This document shows positions 3,287 through 47,516 of a stretch of 64,000 nucleotides of DNA, piece by piece. The stretch is from Escherichia coli (GTDB taxonomy: Bacteria > Pseudomonadota > Gammaproteobacteria > Enterobacterales > Enterobacteriaceae): NCBI RefSeq assembly GCF_044324785.1, contig NZ_CP172127.1. One strand, given 5' to 3'. The position numbers and the translations under genes are program-made. Positions within the stretch are counted from its first letter, which is position 1; each line of letters opens with the position of its first letter. The notes under the pieces are model-generated. The model made no database searches and had not been told where the DNA came from. It worked only from the letters and a program-made list of their open reading frames with translations.

Positions 3287-3793
3287 ATGGTTGAGGATAT
3301 TTTGGCTCCAGGGTTACGGGTCGTGTTTTGCGGTATCAACCCTGGGCTTTCATCCGCCGGGACTGGTTTTCCCTTTGCTCATCCGGCAAATCGCTTCTGG
3401 AAGGTGATATATCAGGCCGGGTTTACCGACCGTCAGTTGAAGCCGGAAGAGGCGCAGCATCTGCTGGATTATCGTTGTGGCGTCACCAAACTGGTAGACC
3501 GTCCAACGGTGCAAGCCAATGAAGTTTCAAAGCAAGAGCTACACGCAGGCGGGCGTAAGCTGATTGAAAAAATTGAAAATTACCAACCACAAGCGTTGGC
3601 GATTCTGGGCAAACAAGCATATGAACAGGGATTCAGCCAGCGCGGTGCACAGTGGGGGAAACAAACGCTCACCATTGGTTCGACGCAGATTTGGGTGCTG
3701 CCAAATCCCAGCGGTTTAAGTCGCGTTTCACTGGAGAAACTGGTTGAAGCGTATCGCGAGCTGGACCAGGCGCTGGTAGTGCGGGGCCTGTGA
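3287..3793 (+). CDS. mug: G/U mismatch-specific DNA glycosylase
   Basis: 168 aa ORF, ATG at 3287; N-terminal motif VFCGINPG typical of Mug/TDG. Confidence 0.92.
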
Positions 3794-3849
3794 AGTGCAG
3801 TGTAACGAAGTTATGAGCGGGCAAAGTACCGCTCCTTACAGATATGGGC

Positions 3850-4413
3850 TTATTCTTCCGCCAAACGGTCTCTGACTACCATAAGCGCAAATCCCAGCAG
3901 ATTTTTCCCCTTCCAGTGAGATGGCACACCGGCATGAGGATGATCTTTTGCAAGGCCAATCCCCCAGAGTTTATCCACCGGGCTGGCTTCAACCAAAATG
4001 CGGGACTGTGTATTTAGCAAGAATGTTTTCAATGCCGAATGTTGGCTAAATTTGTGATAGTTCCCTTCACAGACCAGCTCAAAGCAACTGGCTTGCCAGC
4101 GTTGTTCATCAAAGTTTGTCACCTGCCTCCCCAGCTTTTTGGCTTCTGCCGGGGTCGCCGCCGCCAGAATTCTGGCAAGCGTTTTACTGTCATTAAACAG
4201 CCGCGCTTTTCCTGCCATCATCCAGTGCTCTGCGGTAGCGTAGGTTATACCACCATAGGTAAAAGGCGAACCCTGCCACCACTGACTAAAGCAAGAGGCG
4301 GTAATTTCGTTATTCGAGGCAGGTTGATGGCCCCAGAACCACAGGTATTTCACTTTTTTCCCGGAATCAAGGGCGGAAAGAAGGGCGGGGAGAGAATAGT
4401 ATCCTTGCTGCAT
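3850..4413 (-). CDS. NADAR-domain (YbiA-like, DUF1768) protein; accessory gene between mug and the rpoD terminator
   Basis: 187 aa ORF with features I recognise as the YbiA/NADAR family (e.g. ...WGIGL...); ATG at 4413 immediately downstream of the rpoD terminator. Confidence 0.7.
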   Translation of the reverse strand: MQQGYYSLPALLSALDSGKKVKYLWFWGHQPASNNEITASCFSQWWQGSPFTYGGITYATAEHWMMAGKARLFNDSKTLARILAAATPAEAKKLGRQVTNFDEQRWQASCFELVCEGNYHKFSQHSALKTFLLNTQSRILVEASPVDKLWGIGLAKDHPHAGVPSHWKGKNLLGFALMVVRDRLAEE

Positions 4414-4426
4414 TGCCAGATTTCCT

Positions 4427-4457
4427 TAATAAAAAAGCCCTCACGATGGAGGGCTTA
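4427..4457 (-). terminator. rpoD rho-independent terminator
   Basis: Minus-strand transcript reads aagccctccatcgtgagggcttttttatt: GC-rich hairpin plus U tract directly after the rpoD stop. Confidence 0.75.
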
Positions 4458-4472
4458 TGCATATCTTTACGA

Positions 4473-6314
<1,842 letters not shown>

Positions 6315-6508
6315 AAGACGGTATCCACACTTATTTCATGAGGTTGGTGTTGGGCGATTGACCCGATGTCCTTCAGCCGTTAACGCTGAAATCCAACGGT
6401 TGTTTACCGCCAACGATAATTACGAGGGCGTACTTATATATTTGCCGCTGCCTCTCAGTGCGGCTGTCGGGGGCTTCCCGATCGCTCTTCGGCACTTAAG
6501 CCGTTAAA

Positions 6509-12899: not shown

Positions 12900-13105
12900 G
12901 GCAACTCCAGTTTATGTATTTGTCTGGAAAAATTCACCGCCACAAACTACCACTAAAAATGTGGTTTTATATTTTTTGCCGCCGTGAATATGTAATTCAC
13001 AGTTCGTGAATCAACGCGAAAATAAGAATGAATATTGCGCCAGAGCAGGGAATGGCAATGTTTTGCGAAATACACTGCGCTTATCACAACTGCGGATAAT
13101 TAACG

Positions 13106-27323: not shown

Positions 27324-27491
27324 CTAAACCAGTACGAACAAAAGCTTGCTCTGCCGAAGCGCGACGATAGAGCCTGGCGAAAATAATTCCAATAATAAAC
27401 AGAATGCATACGGCAATAATCGCGGTAAACATCCAGGAGGGCACAGAATTAACAATATCATCCATTATTAAATTTCCTTTTGATTAATAAA

Positions 27492-28924: not shown

Positions 28925-29044
28925 TGTAGTTTCCCTGTACTGATAGGTGTTGAGTGCCATTGTAGTGCGATAAGGGTAAGTCATAAACCAGAATTATGTG
29001 AAGCTATGCGTTGCTGCCGCTAATCATTAGCGTTATAGTGAATC

Positions 29045-40323: not shown

Positions 40324-42465
40324 TCAAAATTCCATTTTCACCGTGAATTGCACTGCACGCGGATCGCCAATCTGATTCCCCAGATTATTTGTGGCGATGG
40401 AAGAGGTGTAATACGTTTTATCAAACAGGTTTTTGACGTTTAATTGCAGTGTGACCGGATACTGCAATTTCATTTTGTATGCGGCGAAGGCATCGGCAAC
40501 GAAATAGCCAGGCAGATAATAGTCAGCCCCATTGGTTGCCGAACGACGGCTTACGCCATGTCCACCACCGCCAAACGTCAGTGTGTTATTGCCTGGCATG
40601 TTATGAATGTCATAGGTCAGGAATAGCGAACCGGTATGACGAGGAACATTCGGCAATGGTTTCCCTGCATAATCAGGATCTTCCAGAACCTTAGCATCGG
40701 TATAGCCGTAGCTGGCAATGATATTAATGTTTTCAGTTAATGCTCCCGCAAGGTCGACTTCTACCCCTCTTGAACGAACGCGGCCTGCCGTTTTGGCGAT
40801 GGTTTCATCACCAATACTTTCGGTATACAACACGTTACGTTTATGGATATCAAACAGCGCAATATCTGCGGTTATACCATCGAACAGCTCGAATTTTGCC
40901 CCGACTTCGTAAGCATTAGATGATTCCGGTGGAAGATCTCCGATGTAGCTGGCAATTGACGATTGCGGCATAAATGTTTGCGAATAATTAGCAAATAAGG
41001 ATACCGATGGCGTCAGTTTGTAGACTAACCCCAGTTTGGGCGTCCATTGTTCATCGCGGCTGTCAGTATTGACATTAAAAGGACGGCCTTTACCCGCATA
41101 CTGCGTGTAATACTGATAGCGGATCCCGGCGACGGCAATCCAGTTATCGGTCAGATAGAGCGCGTCCTGTGCATACGCTGAGTAGCTCTCCTGTTTGATC
41201 GTCTGATCACTGTCCGACGCCGAAACCGTTGTGCATTTGCTGGTAATACCATAAACGGGGTTGTAGATATTGAAATCTTTAGCTTTTTTACAGCGAATCA
41301 TATCTGTGCGCAGAAGATCATAATATTCATATGACACCCCACCCAGAATCTCATTATAGAATCCGGCAATATCAACATTCCCTTGCAGATCCGCACGAGT
41401 AGCATGCATACGCTGGGTAGATCCTTGGGTTGCATCAACACGCCGTGTCAGCGTTCCTGTCGTTGCATCATATGCGGTAACACGCGCCTGATTATCGCTG
41501 TATTTATCCTGGCTGTAGCTGTAATCAAAGCGCGCTGTCCACTGGCTATTGAGATGATATTCTGCGTTGAGTTGCGCCAGATCGGACTGACCATCTGTAA
41601 TATTAAACGGTTCGTCAAAACGTATTTTTCGATCAACGTTTACGGGCTGTTTCGTCGTAAGGTCGAAAATCGTTCCACGATCGAACGGAGTTTTATAGTC
41701 CCGATGGGAATAGAGCATGGTTACTGTTGCATTATCACCAAACCAGGTGAGTGACGGGGCAATAAATGTACTGCGCTCTTTACCGAAGTTTCGCCAGTAA
41801 TCTTCATCCTGCACTTCCCCGGTAAGGCGATACGCCAGCTGAGTGCCTTCAATGGGACCTGTGATATCAAGTTGCCCAGTGCCGCCACCAAAACTGGAGG
41901 AGGTGGCTGAAACCGAACCATGGAATGTTTTTTCCGGGCGCTTGGTCACGACGTTAATCAGTCCACCAGGATCGAGAATGCCATACAGCGTGGAGGCCGG
42001 ACCTTTTAGCACTTCCACACGTTCTGTGGCGGCGTTGAAACTGCGAGGAAGTACAGTTCGCAGGCCGTTGGTCATGATGGAGCCATCCCGGTTAGCACCA
42101 AACCCACGACGTACAAAGGCGTCCTGAGTTCCGCCTAATGTATTGGTCTGTACCACGTTACTGACGTTATAAAGCGCTTCATCCAGCGTCGTCGCATTCT
42201 GATTTTCCAGAACCTGATCGCTAACCGTATTGACCACCTGCGGGATATCCAGCATCGGCATATCGGTTAATGTCGCCGTGGAAGTGCTCAGAGGTTGATA
42301 ACCATCGGTCGCCTCAGTTGCGGTATTTGCATCCGCTGTAACAGTGATTGTTTCGCCATCTTTGGTCGTTGCAGTGTCGGTTGCATGAATCATTGGTGCT
42401 GCAAAGAGCAGTGAAAAGAGCGCCCGACCTTTGATTCCTGAGAATGAAGGTGTGAACTTAGCCAT
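40324..42465 (-). CDS. TonB-dependent outer-membrane siderophore receptor
   Basis: 713 aa; signal peptide, plug domain, beta-barrel, C-terminal aromatic residue (...FTVKMEF). Confidence 0.88.
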   Translation of the reverse strand: MAKFTPSFSGIKGRALFSLLFAAPMIHATDTATTKDGETITVTADANTATEATDGYQPLSTSTATLTDMPMLDIPQVVNTVSDQVLENQNATTLDEALYNVSNVVQTNTLGGTQDAFVRRGFGANRDGSIMTNGLRTVLPRSFNAATERVEVLKGPASTLYGILDPGGLINVVTKRPEKTFHGSVSATSSSFGGGTGQLDITGPIEGTQLAYRLTGEVQDEDYWRNFGKERSTFIAPSLTWFGDNATVTMLYSHRDYKTPFDRGTIFDLTTKQPVNVDRKIRFDEPFNITDGQSDLAQLNAEYHLNSQWTARFDYSYSQDKYSDNQARVTAYDATTGTLTRRVDATQGSTQRMHATRADLQGNVDIAGFYNEILGGVSYEYYDLLRTDMIRCKKAKDFNIYNPVYGITSKCTTVSASDSDQTIKQESYSAYAQDALYLTDNWIAVAGIRYQYYTQYAGKGRPFNVNTDSRDEQWTPKLGLVYKLTPSVSLFANYSQTFMPQSSIASYIGDLPPESSNAYEVGAKFELFDGITADIALFDIHKRNVLYTESIGDETIAKTAGRVRSRGVEVDLAGALTENINIIASYGYTDAKVLEDPDYAGKPLPNVPRHTGSLFLTYDIHNMPGNNTLTFGGGGHGVSRRSATNGADYYLPGYFVADAFAAYKMKLQYPVTLQLNVKNLFDKTYYTSSIATNNLGNQIGDPRAVQFTVKMEF

Positions 42466-42563
42466 TTAGTCTGTTATCCCAAAAACTCACGGATTGTCGT
42501 GAGTGAAAATTGTTTCTTGTTGCTCACTAAGCACTATCCGTTTGTTATCTCACCATCGGATAT

Positions 42564-42584
42564 GTAATTGAGAATCATTCAATC
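42564..42584. promoter_or_regulatory. Fur-box-like site in the divergent promoter region between the receptor and the ABC operon
   Basis: gtaattgagaatcattcaatc compared with consensus GATAATGATAATCATTATC; embedded in an AT-rich 370-bp intergenic region. Confidence 0.5.
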
Positions 42585-42838
42585 ATGCGGTGATGTAGTA
42601 GTAAATGAGAAATAACAAAAAATTGCTACATGTGTTTTTATGAGAGGTTAATGCAATTCAATTGATTGTAATTTATTAATATTTAATGGTTTTATTTTTA
42701 TCTTTAAAAATATTTCACCTGTTATTTACCTTGTTTTTGTATGGCTTTTAACTTCTTGACTACTACATTTTGTGGCGTCAAACTCTCAAAGGAGAATGAG
42801 TTTTATTTTTGTTTGTCTTTGATTAAGTTGGCGTACAC

Positions 42839-43648
42839 GTGGCACATAACGCAAAAGGGCAGGGGCTGATCCTCGACAATGTTTCTGCCGGGTATCACAC
42901 GAAAATCATTGTTGATGGTGTTTCTTTCTCCGTTCCCACAGAAAAAATGACCGTTCTGGTTGGGGCAAACGGCTGTGGAAAGTCGACGTTGCTCAGCACC
43001 ATTGCACGTATCTTGCAACCTATGGGCGGCTCGATATTGCTGGATGGTAAAGCGATTCACGAGCAACCAACGAAAGCGTTATCCCGTAGACTTGGGATCT
43101 TGCCGCAGTCGCCATTATTGCCGGAGGGATTAACCGTTTATGAACTGGTGTCGCGTGGGCGTTTTCCCTGGCAGAATTTCATTCGTCAATGGAGCGACGC
43201 CGACGAGCAGGCGGTAGAAGAGGCCCTGAAATTAACCGGTACGCAGGAGTTTGCACATTTACCTGTTGAAAAACTTTCTGGTGGGCAGCGCCAGCGTTGC
43301 TGGATTGCGATGGTGTTGGCGCAAAAGACGCCTTATATCCTGCTGGATGAACCCACAACCTGGCTTGATTTACGTTATCAGGTTGAAATTCTTGAGTTAT
43401 TACATGATTTAACGCGTCATCACGGGCGTACAGTCGTCGTGGTGTTGCATGATCTGAATTTTGCCGTCAATTATGGTGATACGTTGATATTTTTACGCCA
43501 GGGGAAAGTGGTGCGTGTGTTGAATGAGGGGGAACATTGCACGCCTGAGCTGGTAAAAGCTGTCTTTGACGTTGATGTTCACGCATCAATAAATCCTCTG
43601 ACGGGAAAGCCGTTCTTCATGCCGTTTCGTGGTGTAGAAAAAGTATGA
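42839..43648 (+). CDS. ABC transporter ATP-binding protein, FepC/FecE-like
   Basis: 269 aa; Walker A GANGCGKST, signature LSGGQRQR, Walker B ILLDEPT; GTG start at 42839 is the most upstream in-frame start. Confidence 0.88.
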   Translation: MAHNAKGQGLILDNVSAGYHTKIIVDGVSFSVPTEKMTVLVGANGCGKSTLLSTIARILQPMGGSILLDGKAIHEQPTKALSRRLGILPQSPLLPEGLTVYELVSRGRFPWQNFIRQWSDADEQAVEEALKLTGTQEFAHLPVEKLSGGQRQRCWIAMVLAQKTPYILLDEPTTWLDLRYQVEILELLHDLTRHHGRTVVVVLHDLNFAVNYGDTLIFLRQGKVVRVLNEGEHCTPELVKAVFDVDVHASINPLTGKPFFMPFRGVEKV

Positions 43649-45684: not shown

Positions 45685-46632
45685 ATGCGTTTATTTTTTT
45701 CTCTGCTGATACTGTTGTCATTCTTTGCCCGCGCGACAGAACCTGTTCAGGTCTTTACTGATGATTTAGGGCGCAAAGTCACTGTTCCTGCTCATCCAAA
45801 GAGAATTGTCTCTTTACACGATCTTGATATCACTATTCCTCTGATTGAGCTCGGTGTACCTCCTGTCGCCAGCCACGGGCGAACCCGGCCTGACGGTAGC
45901 CATTTCATTCGATCAGGCGCGTTATTGACAGGTGTCGACTTTGATAATTCATCGATCGCTTTTATTGGCACCGCTGATATTGATATTGAAGCGATTGTGG
46001 CGGCAAAGCCTGACCTGATCATCACAGAACCGACCCGTAATACGCCCATTGAACAACTGGAAAAAATTGCGCCCACGGTGAGCATTGATCATCTCAAAGG
46101 CGGCGCGCCAGAAATCTACCGCAAGCTGGCAGAACTTACAGGAACGCAGTCGCAGCTGGCGATACTTGAACGCCGCTATCAGGCACAAATCAATGCGCTG
46201 AAGGCGACGCTGGACAGCCAAAAAATAACGGTATCGGTGATTCAGGCAAATCAGGGAAAAATTAATGTGATGCATAGCTATCATTCGCTGGGGCGGGTAT
46301 TACGCGATGCTGGTTTTCGCTTTCCGCCGCTGATTGAGAGCATTCCTGAAGGTGGGCGAATGGATGTGAGCGCAGAGCGTTTACCTGAACTGGATGCCGA
46401 TTTTGTTTTTGCAACCTGGCGCGGTGACACCGGTGGTAAACCTCAGGATGAGCTGGCAGCAATGGAAAAAGTCATGCCGGGATGGTGTCAGTTTCTGACG
46501 GCCTGTCGTTCCGGGCGCTATGTGCTGATTTCTCGTGAAGAGGCGATTTCTAACTCCTTTGCATCTCTGGGGCTGATGGCTGCGCAGATACAATCACAAA
46601 TTGCGGGACGACCTCTACCGGAGGCTAAATGA
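45685..46632 (+). CDS. Periplasmic substrate-binding protein (siderophore/chelate-binding cluster)
   Basis: 315 aa from ATG 45685 (MRLFFSLLILLSFFARA signal peptide) preceded by aatgggag RBS; track ORF extends upstream. Confidence 0.8.
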   Translation: MRLFFSLLILLSFFARATEPVQVFTDDLGRKVTVPAHPKRIVSLHDLDITIPLIELGVPPVASHGRTRPDGSHFIRSGALLTGVDFDNSSIAFIGTADIDIEAIVAAKPDLIITEPTRNTPIEQLEKIAPTVSIDHLKGGAPEIYRKLAELTGTQSQLAILERRYQAQINALKATLDSQKITVSVIQANQGKINVMHSYHSLGRVLRDAGFRFPPLIESIPEGGRMDVSAERLPELDADFVFATWRGDTGGKPQDELAAMEKVMPGWCQFLTACRSGRYVLISREEAISNSFASLGLMAAQIQSQIAGRPLPEAK

Positions 46633-47516
46633 TCCAGAAAGACAAAACGCGGGTTGATATTTATGGTGAGCGTTTTCGCACTCGCGCGAGTCAGTTAACG
46701 CCTGGGTTAAGAACTGTCGCAAGCTACATTAATGAGCATCGTGAAGTGGTACTCGAGCAAACGGCGATGGAAATTGCGGCCACGTTGAACACTTCCGATG
46801 CCACAGTTATCAGGGCTATACAGGCTCTGGGGTTTGCCGGGCTGCGTGATCTGAAACGCACTCTGGAACAGTGGCTTGGTCCAGCCCTTAGTTCCAGCGA
46901 AAAGATGTCTACGACGGTGAGTAACTTGACGAGCGATGTTAACACCGCAATCGACTTTGTTCTTGAAGGGCATTTGTATACTTGTAATGTCCTGTCAGAG
47001 CCTGAAAACCGCCACGCGCTTGCGCAAGCTGTAGCGTTGTTGGTGCAGGCACGGCAAGTCGCTATTTTTGGCATTGGCGCTTCGGGTATCCTGGCGGACT
47101 ATACCGCACGACTATTCAACCGCATAGGTTTGCCTGCCACGGCACTAAACCGTACGGGTATTGGCCTTGCCGAGCAACTGATCGCGCTTCAACGTGGCGA
47201 TGTTCTGATCATGATGGCGCAAAAATCTGCGCACCGGGAAGGGCTGACAACGCTTCGTGAGGCGAGGCGGCTGGGGATCCCTGTTATTTTGCTGACAAAC
47301 GCGCTGGATTCACGTTTTAGCAAAGACGCCAGTATCGTGATTCATGTTCCGCGCGGGGATGAAAAGGGGAAAACGCCACTACATGGTACGGTATTGTTGT
47401 GCCTGGAAATGATTGTTTGGTCGGTGGCTTCCGCGATGCCGCAGCGTGCGGTTAAAACCATTAAGCGAATTAACGATTTCCATCGGGGTTTGAAAACGGG
47501 AAGAAAGAATGGCTAA
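46629..47516 (+). CDS. RpiR/MurR-family transcriptional regulator (N-terminal HTH, C-terminal SIS domain)
   Basis: 295 aa; SIS-type nucleotide/sugar-phosphate-binding fold recognisable (…VAIFGIGASG…); start overlaps the SBP stop. Confidence 0.8.
   Translation: MIQKDKTRVDIYGERFRTRASQLTPGLRTVASYINEHREVVLEQTAMEIAATLNTSDATVIRAIQALGFAGLRDLKRTLEQWLGPALSSSEKMSTTVSNLTSDVNTAIDFVLEGHLYTCNVLSEPENRHALAQAVALLVQARQVAIFGIGASGILADYTARLFNRIGLPATALNRTGIGLAEQLIALQRGDVLIMMAQKSAHREGLTTLREARRLGIPVILLTNALDSRFSKDASIVIHVPRGDEKGKTPLHGTVLLCLEMIVWSVASAMPQRAVKTIKRINDFHRGLKTGRKNG

Follow-up and report, generated by a model that had tools for sequence, protein, structure and literature searches.

The 373-bp gap between fitA and fitB-E-fitR (positions 42466-42838 of the window, i.e., the stretch of 64,000 nucleotides of Escherichia coli chromosome analyzed here) is very probably the bidirectional, iron-repressed control region of the fit locus, with two Fur boxes and an additional FitR layer (probability approximately 0.88). 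Fur-dependent, iron-responsive control of fit together with an RpiR-type layer is supported and already published (2008; ChIP-exo 2023), and recognizing box 1 as a Fur site adds nothing conceptually, as the literature has described fit as a Fur target since 2008. Our base-level map of two Fur boxes, two predicted promoters, candidate FitR operators and the fitA leader is a modest incremental addition, and the mapped features, conserved over approximately 12 enterobacterial genera, are concrete mutagenesis targets for those working on fit. Within this map, we infer the exact promoter hexamers, the transcription starts and the assignment of the TGTAGTAGT boxes to FitR.

The fit locus and its intergenic region

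40324-42465, minus strand: fitA, TonB-dependent siderophore receptor gene (open reading frame and family match)
42466-42838, unstranded: intergenic bidirectional control region (open reading frames, RefSeq records of N3 and Sakai, GC content, PMC2593036)
42839-43648, plus strand: FecE-like ATPase gene (open reading frame and family match)
46629-47516: fitR, MurR/RpiR regulator gene (open reading frame and family match)

The other genes of the insert encode two FecCD permeases and a siderophore-binding protein, again by family match. The fit locus has six genes in two divergent units, with the receptor on one side and the ATPase, two permeases, a periplasmic binding protein and a regulator with HTH and SIS domains on the other. 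The gap is bounded by the ATG of fitA (42465, minus strand) and the GTG of the ATPase gene (42839, plus strand), the same start codons that RefSeq gives in strain N3. In one RefSeq match the neighbors read tolC-nudF-yqiB-cpdA-yqiA-parE, the six-gene insert and ygiN-mdaB-qseCB, and RefSeq E. coli genomes carry the fit insert between parE and ygiN. The Sakai record uses the names fitA and fitC, and the six-gene layout is the same in N3 and Sakai. Given the family matches, the parE-ygiN site and the Sakai gene names, we identify the gap as the published fit control region.

Of 5426 complete E. coli genomes, 1870 matched a 701-bp query around the gap (90-100% identity), and fit can be described as an accessory iron-uptake locus present in about one third of complete E. 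coli genomes. It is reportedly commoner among pathogenic isolates. The same six-gene layout is kept in Erwinia, Kluyvera, Citrobacter, Serratia, Sodalis, Raoultella and Dryocola, which suggests that the cassette and its control region move as one unit. As the first-pass annotation had stated, the gap between receptor gene and ABC operon is AT-rich: its GC content is 30.6% (whole window, 51.4%), which ranks within the bottom 0.3% of 373-bp windows.

Two side observations concern the loci outside E. coli. The neighborhoods of the cassette differ among the seven genera named above (loci L056-L058 and L062-L066). In locus L061, labeled Pseudomonas cerasi, three extra genes (one PepSY_TM and two PBP_like_2) lie between the binding-protein gene and fitR (3507-6504), and the flanking genes are those of the Serratia locus L062; because of these shared flanks, the organism label of L061 may be wrong.

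Fur and FitR act on both fit promoters

The intergenic DNA was cloned in both orientations by Ouyang and Isaacson (2008) as the "bidirectional fit promoter," and iron deprivation induced the reporters in both directions (PMC2593036). In the same study fitA was upregulated 23-fold in a fur mutant, and purified FitR, an RpiR-type protein, shifted a 347-bp intergenic fragment in EMSA. FitR repressed both fit promoters independently of Fur, with an effect of only 2- to 5-fold compared to at least 23-fold for Fur (PMC2593036). The authors did not identify the exact Fur and FitR sites (PMC2593036).

Fur ChIP-exo combined with RNA-seq of fur deletions was later reported for nine strains, three of which carry fit (Gao et al., 2023; PMC10164565). 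All three have Fur ChIP-exo peaks in the gap under iron-replete conditions (PMC10164565), at the following coordinates:

CFT073: 3607758-70 and 3607968-80 (PMC10164565)
042: 3539587-99, 3539695-707 and 3539800-12 (PMC10164565)
Sakai: 3917060-72 and 3917271-83, in an older version of the record (PMC10164565)

The peaks were placed on the window through the 373-bp gap, which is identical in the three strain records. For Sakai, adding 128 bp, the length difference between the record versions, brings both peaks into the gap, where their relative positions agree with those of the other strains. Mapped in this way, the peaks of all three strains fall at 42575-42587 and 42785-42800, and strain 042 has one more:

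42680-42692, unstranded: middle Fur ChIP-exo peak, strain 042 only, with weak matrix sites (4.9-7.4 bits) at 42647-42700

The region of this middle peak is not conserved outside Escherichia. The two outer peaks, which are 13-bp calls, lie 8-10 bp from the centers of box 1 and box 2. As a calibration, 7-13 bp separate the nfeF box of CFT073 from the corresponding ChIP-exo peak; since this well-established box shows such a distance, an offset of 8-10 bp is normal. The published peaks, as mapped here, place Fur near both boxes in vivo.

Deletion of fur gave log2 fold changes of 8.1, 3.5 and 3.9 for fitA and of 5.9, 1.8 and 3.3 for the ATPase gene, and fitA was the fit gene most strongly derepressed (PMC10164565). 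From the sequence, the first-pass annotation had proposed iron-responsive control of the receptor gene, the operon or both, possibly layered with the RpiR-type regulator. Published reporters, fur-deletion data and ChIP-exo support the first proposal for both units, and the Fur-independent repression of both promoters by FitR supports the second (PMC2593036, PMC10164565).

Two further observations concern Fur peaks inside fitA. An intragenic peak approximately 1483-1495 bp into the gene (window approximately 40970-40982) in CFT073, 042 and Sakai coincides with TGCGAATAATTAGCA at 40979-40993, in which 10 of 12 positions agree with the ChIP-exo Fur motif. A Sakai-only peak, P119, assigned to parE in the data set, maps to about 41963-41975 of the window; after the 128-bp version correction it lies approximately 490-502 bp into fitA and is not intergenic as labeled.

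Conserved blocks and predicted promoters

A scan of one genome per species gave 39 loci with a fitA orthologue (71-99% protein identity) from Escherichia, Enterobacter, Lelliottia, Silvania, Huaxiibacter, Citrobacter, Kosakonia, Kluyvera, Yokenella, Erwinia, Pantoea and Affinibrenneria. In all 39, the ATPase gene diverges from fitA across a gap of 369-588 bp. Four blocks of the alignment are invariant, amid poorly conserved DNA:

42563-42588: B1, TGTAATTGAGAATCATTCAAnCAyG, holds the site of the first-pass annotation
42594-42607: B2, TGTAGTAGTAAAyG, candidate FitR operator
42755-42767: B3, CTTGACTACTACA, an inverted copy of B2
about 42786-42812: B4, AAAGAGAATGAGwkTTATTTTTATTT, holds Fur box 2

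Both Fur boxes are invariant or nearly so across 44 distinct orthologous regions from approximately 12 genera. From invariant hexamers at conserved spacing in approximately 44 regions, two promoters can be predicted:

42577-42605, minus strand: predicted fitA promoter, -35 TTTACT (42605-42600), 17-nt spacer, -10 TTGAAT (42582-42577)
42756-42784, plus strand: predicted ABC-operon (fitB) promoter, -35 TTGACT (42756-42761), 17-nt spacer, -10 CAAACT (42779-42784)

An invariant TG (42585-42584) precedes the predicted fitA -10, and the fitB -10 keeps the pattern CAnnnT in all genera. Transcription is predicted to start near 42570 on the minus strand for fitA and near 42790 on the plus strand for the ABC operon. 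The hexamers are weak by consensus; a sigma-70 consensus scan of 42300-43000 called no promoter, and the two predictions are therefore based on conservation only.

A weak and a strong Fur box

42564-42582, unstranded: Fur box 1 GTAATTGAGAATCATTCAA, the site of the first-pass annotation, inside the invariant block 42563-42588, overlapping the predicted fitA -10 and +1
42792-42810, unstranded: Fur box 2 GAGAATGAGTTTTATTTTT, 17.1 bits, just 3' of the predicted ABC-operon -10
2198-2222 (matrix site 2204): known nfeF/yqjH Fur box AACAATCATTATCATTTGC in the nfeR-nfeF (yqjI-yqjH) gap, just upstream of nfeF, 19.3 bits, rank 1 in the window

The 21-mer gtaattgagaatcattcaatc, which the first-pass annotation had quoted as matching the Fur consensus at most positions, is present at 42564-42584. 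Its description holds in a loose sense only: box 1 agrees with the classic consensus GATAATGATAATCATTATC at 12 of 19 positions, but 101 positions of the window do equally well or better. For the published ChIP-exo motif TGAnAATnATTcTCA the agreement is 9 of 12 specified positions, with 42 window positions equal or better. Mismatch counts against these two consensus sequences are too permissive, as approximately 100 positions of the window equal box 1, and a trained matrix was used instead. This symmetric 19-bp matrix was built from the best site in each of 15 Fur-regulated intergenic regions of K-12 (fepA-fes, fepD-entS, fepB-entC, fhuA, fiu, fhuE, cirA, exbB, feoA, ryhB, fecA, fecI, nfeF-nfeR, tonB and fhuF), which in leave-one-out scoring obtained 8.4 to 20.0 bits, with exbB and fhuE the weakest (8.4).

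With the matrix, box 1 obtains 9.4 bits, slightly more than the weakest known regions, and takes rank 20 among approximately 64,000 window positions, but not above the maximum found in shuffles of the AT-rich gap (9.1 +/- 2.6 bits). The sequence match alone is therefore no more than chance, because shuffles of the gap score as high. The right half-site is poor (ATTCAAT compared to ATTATCA), and the left half, TGAGAATCATT, agrees exactly with the ChIP-exo motif over 11 positions. The 19-mer is identical in 39 of the 44 distinct orthologous regions, from Escherichia to Erwinia. Taken together, conservation, published Fur binding and derepression in fur deletions make box 1 credible as a Fur site.

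Box 2 ranks second in the window, its 17.1 bits are well within the range of known Fur sites, and shuffles attain this score with a p of about 0.006. Weaker sites overlap it 6 bp to either side (42786 and 42798), and it is the best matrix match in 41 of the 44 orthologous regions. A core resembling GAGAATsAkT is common to both boxes. The first-pass annotation took the weaker of the two and did not mention the stronger one by the operon. The nfeF box serves as an internal positive control, though it is part of the training set of the matrix. Outside fit, the window also holds matches of 12-15 bits at 13018-13036, 29019-29037 and 27379-27397; these may be non-functional, and the K-12 ChIP-exo list has no peak from exbB to yqjH.

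In an alternative reading, only box 2 is a true Fur site, while box 1 is a chance AT-rich likeness conserved as the -10 and start region of fitA, and Fur represses fitA by spreading or polymerizing over the AT-rich spacer, or indirectly. Such a reading would account for a score within the shuffled range, overlap with the predicted -10 TTGAAT could by itself explain part of the conservation of box 1, and Fur footprints are known to span 30-103 bp (PMC2189734). We nevertheless regard it as unlikely. All three strains have a separate ChIP-exo peak by box 1, at a distance of 210-213 bp from the one by box 2; the invariant block of 26 bp goes far beyond the needs of a -10 hexamer; the left half-site matches the ChIP-exo motif exactly; and of all fit genes it is fitA that responds most to loss of Fur.

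With Fur acting at both boxes, the arrangement suggests classic promoter occlusion, as both boxes overlap the -10/+1 regions of the promoters predicted from conservation. In iron-sufficient cells, Fe2+-Fur would occupy a Fur box at both sigma-70 promoters, which are arranged back to back. Box 1 would cover -10 to about +8 of the predicted fitA promoter and the box 2 cluster about +1 to +26 of the predicted operon promoter, so that Fur bound to both boxes would block RNA polymerase at both promoters. FitR provides an independent second layer on the same fragment, and would bind at two invariant inverted TGTAGTAGT boxes that lie over both -35 hexamers.

Candidate FitR operators at a constrained distance

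42594-42607, minus strand: invariant box TGTAGTAGTAAAyG (cATTTACTACTACA on the minus strand), candidate FitR operator, overlaps the fitA -35
42755-42767, plus strand: invariant box CTTGACTACTACA, candidate FitR operator and inverted partner of the former, overlaps the fitB -35
42622-42631, plus strand: partial third box ATTGCTACAT (alignment)

The box at 42594-42607 is invariant in all orthologous regions aligned. Where 0.12 would be expected, the window has three copies of the 9-mer ACTACTACA, and two of them form the inverted TGTAGTAGT / ACTACTACA pair. The third copy (26104) lies within a coding region and has no flanking TTG, and is probably a chance occurrence. The partial third box reads yGaCTACA in Enterobacter, Kosakonia and Citrobacter and is absent in Kluyvera and Erwinia.

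As 6-7 invariant bases extend beyond each -35, the boxes are probably read by something other than sigma-70. FitR is the obvious candidate because it binds the fragment, represses both promoters and is encoded in every locus checked. From the sequence, we hypothesize that the TGTAGTAGT boxes might be FitR operators. The gene fitR co-occurs with the inverted boxes in every locus checked, and for the same reason its presence or absence is uninformative as a test of the operators. A co-variation test would use a diverged helix-turn-helix, and none was found among the best 120 of 780 FitR matches, these 120 being orthologues of at least 69% identity.

The palindrome TTGA-N7-TCAA in block B1 raises the question of whether that block could itself be mainly a FitR operator, leaving the TGTAGTAGT boxes as extended -35 elements or as sites of another factor. 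Some regulators of the RpiR family (HexR) do bind palindromes of the type TTGT-N7/8-ACAA. The block is also more invariant than typical Fur boxes, and FitR binds somewhere on the fragment (PMC2593036). Against this, Fur ChIP-exo peaks lie on the block, box 2, itself a strong Fur match, has a similar GAGAATsAkT core, and the effect of FitR (2- to 5-fold) is small beside that of Fur (at least 23-fold). Moreover, the operon promoter has no copy of TTGA-N7-TCAA, yet FitR represses both promoters, and we find this assignment quite improbable. That the gap is chiefly a target of a nucleoid protein (e.g., H-NS) that silences an acquired island, with the Fur-like matches a by-product of composition, would suit an accessory locus (1870 of 5426 genomes) whose spacer core (42600-42760) has 22% GC in Escherichia and weak Fur-like matches scattered over it, but this is highly improbable as an explanation, as only Escherichia shows the extreme AT-richness (30-44% GC in the same spacer of other genera) whereas the boxes do not vary, Fur is directly implicated by Fur-dependent derepression and by its ChIP-exo peaks, and such silencing is in any case compatible with Fur control.

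Returning to Fur at B1 and FitR at the TGTAGTAGT boxes, the distance between the latter can be compared across regions. In the 44 regions, the center-to-center spacing falls into two classes: 164-166 bp in Escherichia and the Enterobacter group, and 186-188 bp in Citrobacter, Kosakonia, Kluyvera, Yokenella, Erwinia, Pantoea and Affinibrenneria. Ungapped identity of the spacer between genera is about 37%, compared to 27% for shuffles, and the adjoining non-coding stretches are 102-254 bp and 41-106 bp long. The length of the spacer between the boxes is strongly constrained. Independent loci retrieved through FitR orthologues have spacings of 187 bp (Serratia), 187 bp (Sodalis), 186 bp (Dryocola) and 178 bp (Raoultella). 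The idea that the classes are separated by exactly two helical turns (165 compared to 187 bp) was not upheld, given the 178 bp of Raoultella. The candidate FitR operators with their constrained spacing are a new, as yet unproven, addition to the description of fit.

One locus with a different arrangement was also seen. On a Tatumella-type contig (L065, 2072-2650), the fit operon occurs without fitA and has azlCD upstream instead. This locus keeps the operon-side box CTTGACTACTACA and a strong Fur box (17.4 bits), has a degenerate version of the other box (TGTAGTAGTCACC) at a distance of 181 bp, and lacks the Fur box of the first-pass annotation.

A predicted structured fitA leader

42466-42570, minus strand: predicted structured fitA 5' leader, approximately 105 nt if transcription starts near 42570 (per-species folds, covariation)
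42561-42536, minus strand: leader stem P1, encloses a small hairpin
42504-42485, minus strand: leader hairpin P2, with a U-run (42485-42481) after it, just 5' of the ribosome-binding region

The leader folds alike in every species: P1 with its small hairpin, an unpaired conserved motif of the GGGCAAUGA type (GUGAGCAAC in this strain), P2 and the U-run. The sequence of P2 is wholly different between genera, and the U-run is missing in the Erwinia group only. RNAalifold on a plain MAFFT alignment recovered P1 only, with compensatory changes in 4 of 4 pairs, and P2 required a covariance-model alignment. The covariance model was built from ten Enterobacter sequences and the structure described here, and recovered the leader in 28 sources. 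In the resulting alignment, 93.7% of cells were paired, compared to 81.3% when shuffled and 28-45% with partners slid, and 12 of 15 leader pairs showed a compensatory change; these pairing figures are optimistic, as the alignment is fitted to the model.

A search of the gap against Rfam 15 found no family at gathering score. The sole match, to a plant microRNA, is a chance hit (22.5 bits against a gathering score of 65). Pairing of RyhB with the leader motif GGGCAAUG was considered and rejected: the longest Watson-Crick run averages 6.3 nt compared to 5.5 +/- 1.0 nt in shuffles, which is not significant, and an unconstrained prediction of the RyhB duplex was uninformative. P2 and the U-run (42504-42481) resemble a terminator, and the leader may be an attenuator, or a module that acts on mRNA stability or translation. 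The covarying structured leader is a second new addition that is still unproven. Beyond Fur, fit control might have two further features: a length-constrained dual-repressor switch, in which a multimeric FitR would bridge both operators, and a novel structured fitA leader, which would add control after initiation; we put this forward tentatively and consider it somewhat doubtful as a whole.

Comparison with known systems

The closest comparison is the published fit locus, which has the same gene order and families, the same parE-ygiN site, a promoter region of approximately 350-370 bp and dual repression by Fur and FitR (PMC2593036). There is no difference in kind, and what is added here are the box positions, the promoter hexamers and their conservation.

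The enterobactin cluster (fepA-fes, fepD-entS and fepB-entC) resembles fit in having divergent units, Fur boxes over the promoters and several ChIP-exo peaks in each gap. Unlike fit, these regions lack a second repressor of their own. In leave-one-out scoring, their Fur boxes reach 12-19 bits, compared to 9.4 bits for fit box 1, and the fit promoters, in contrast to those of the enterobactin regions, are separated by about 220 bp and have one Fur box each.

The fecABCDE/FecIR system, a parallel drawn by the 2008 authors, likewise combines Fur repression with a locus-specific regulator (PMC2593036). However, while Fec is activated through a cascade of an ECF sigma factor and an anti-sigma factor upon substrate at the receptor, fit has a cytoplasmic repressor of the RpiR/MurR type (HTH_6 and SIS). 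MurR (murR-murQP) and HexR are similar to FitR in that they have HTH_6 and SIS domains, are encoded beside their target and repress their own operon. The operators of MurR and HexR are adjacent palindromes in divergent promoter regions. The candidate operator of fit differs from these in being an inverted TGTAGTAGT pair whose members lie approximately 165 or 187 bp apart.
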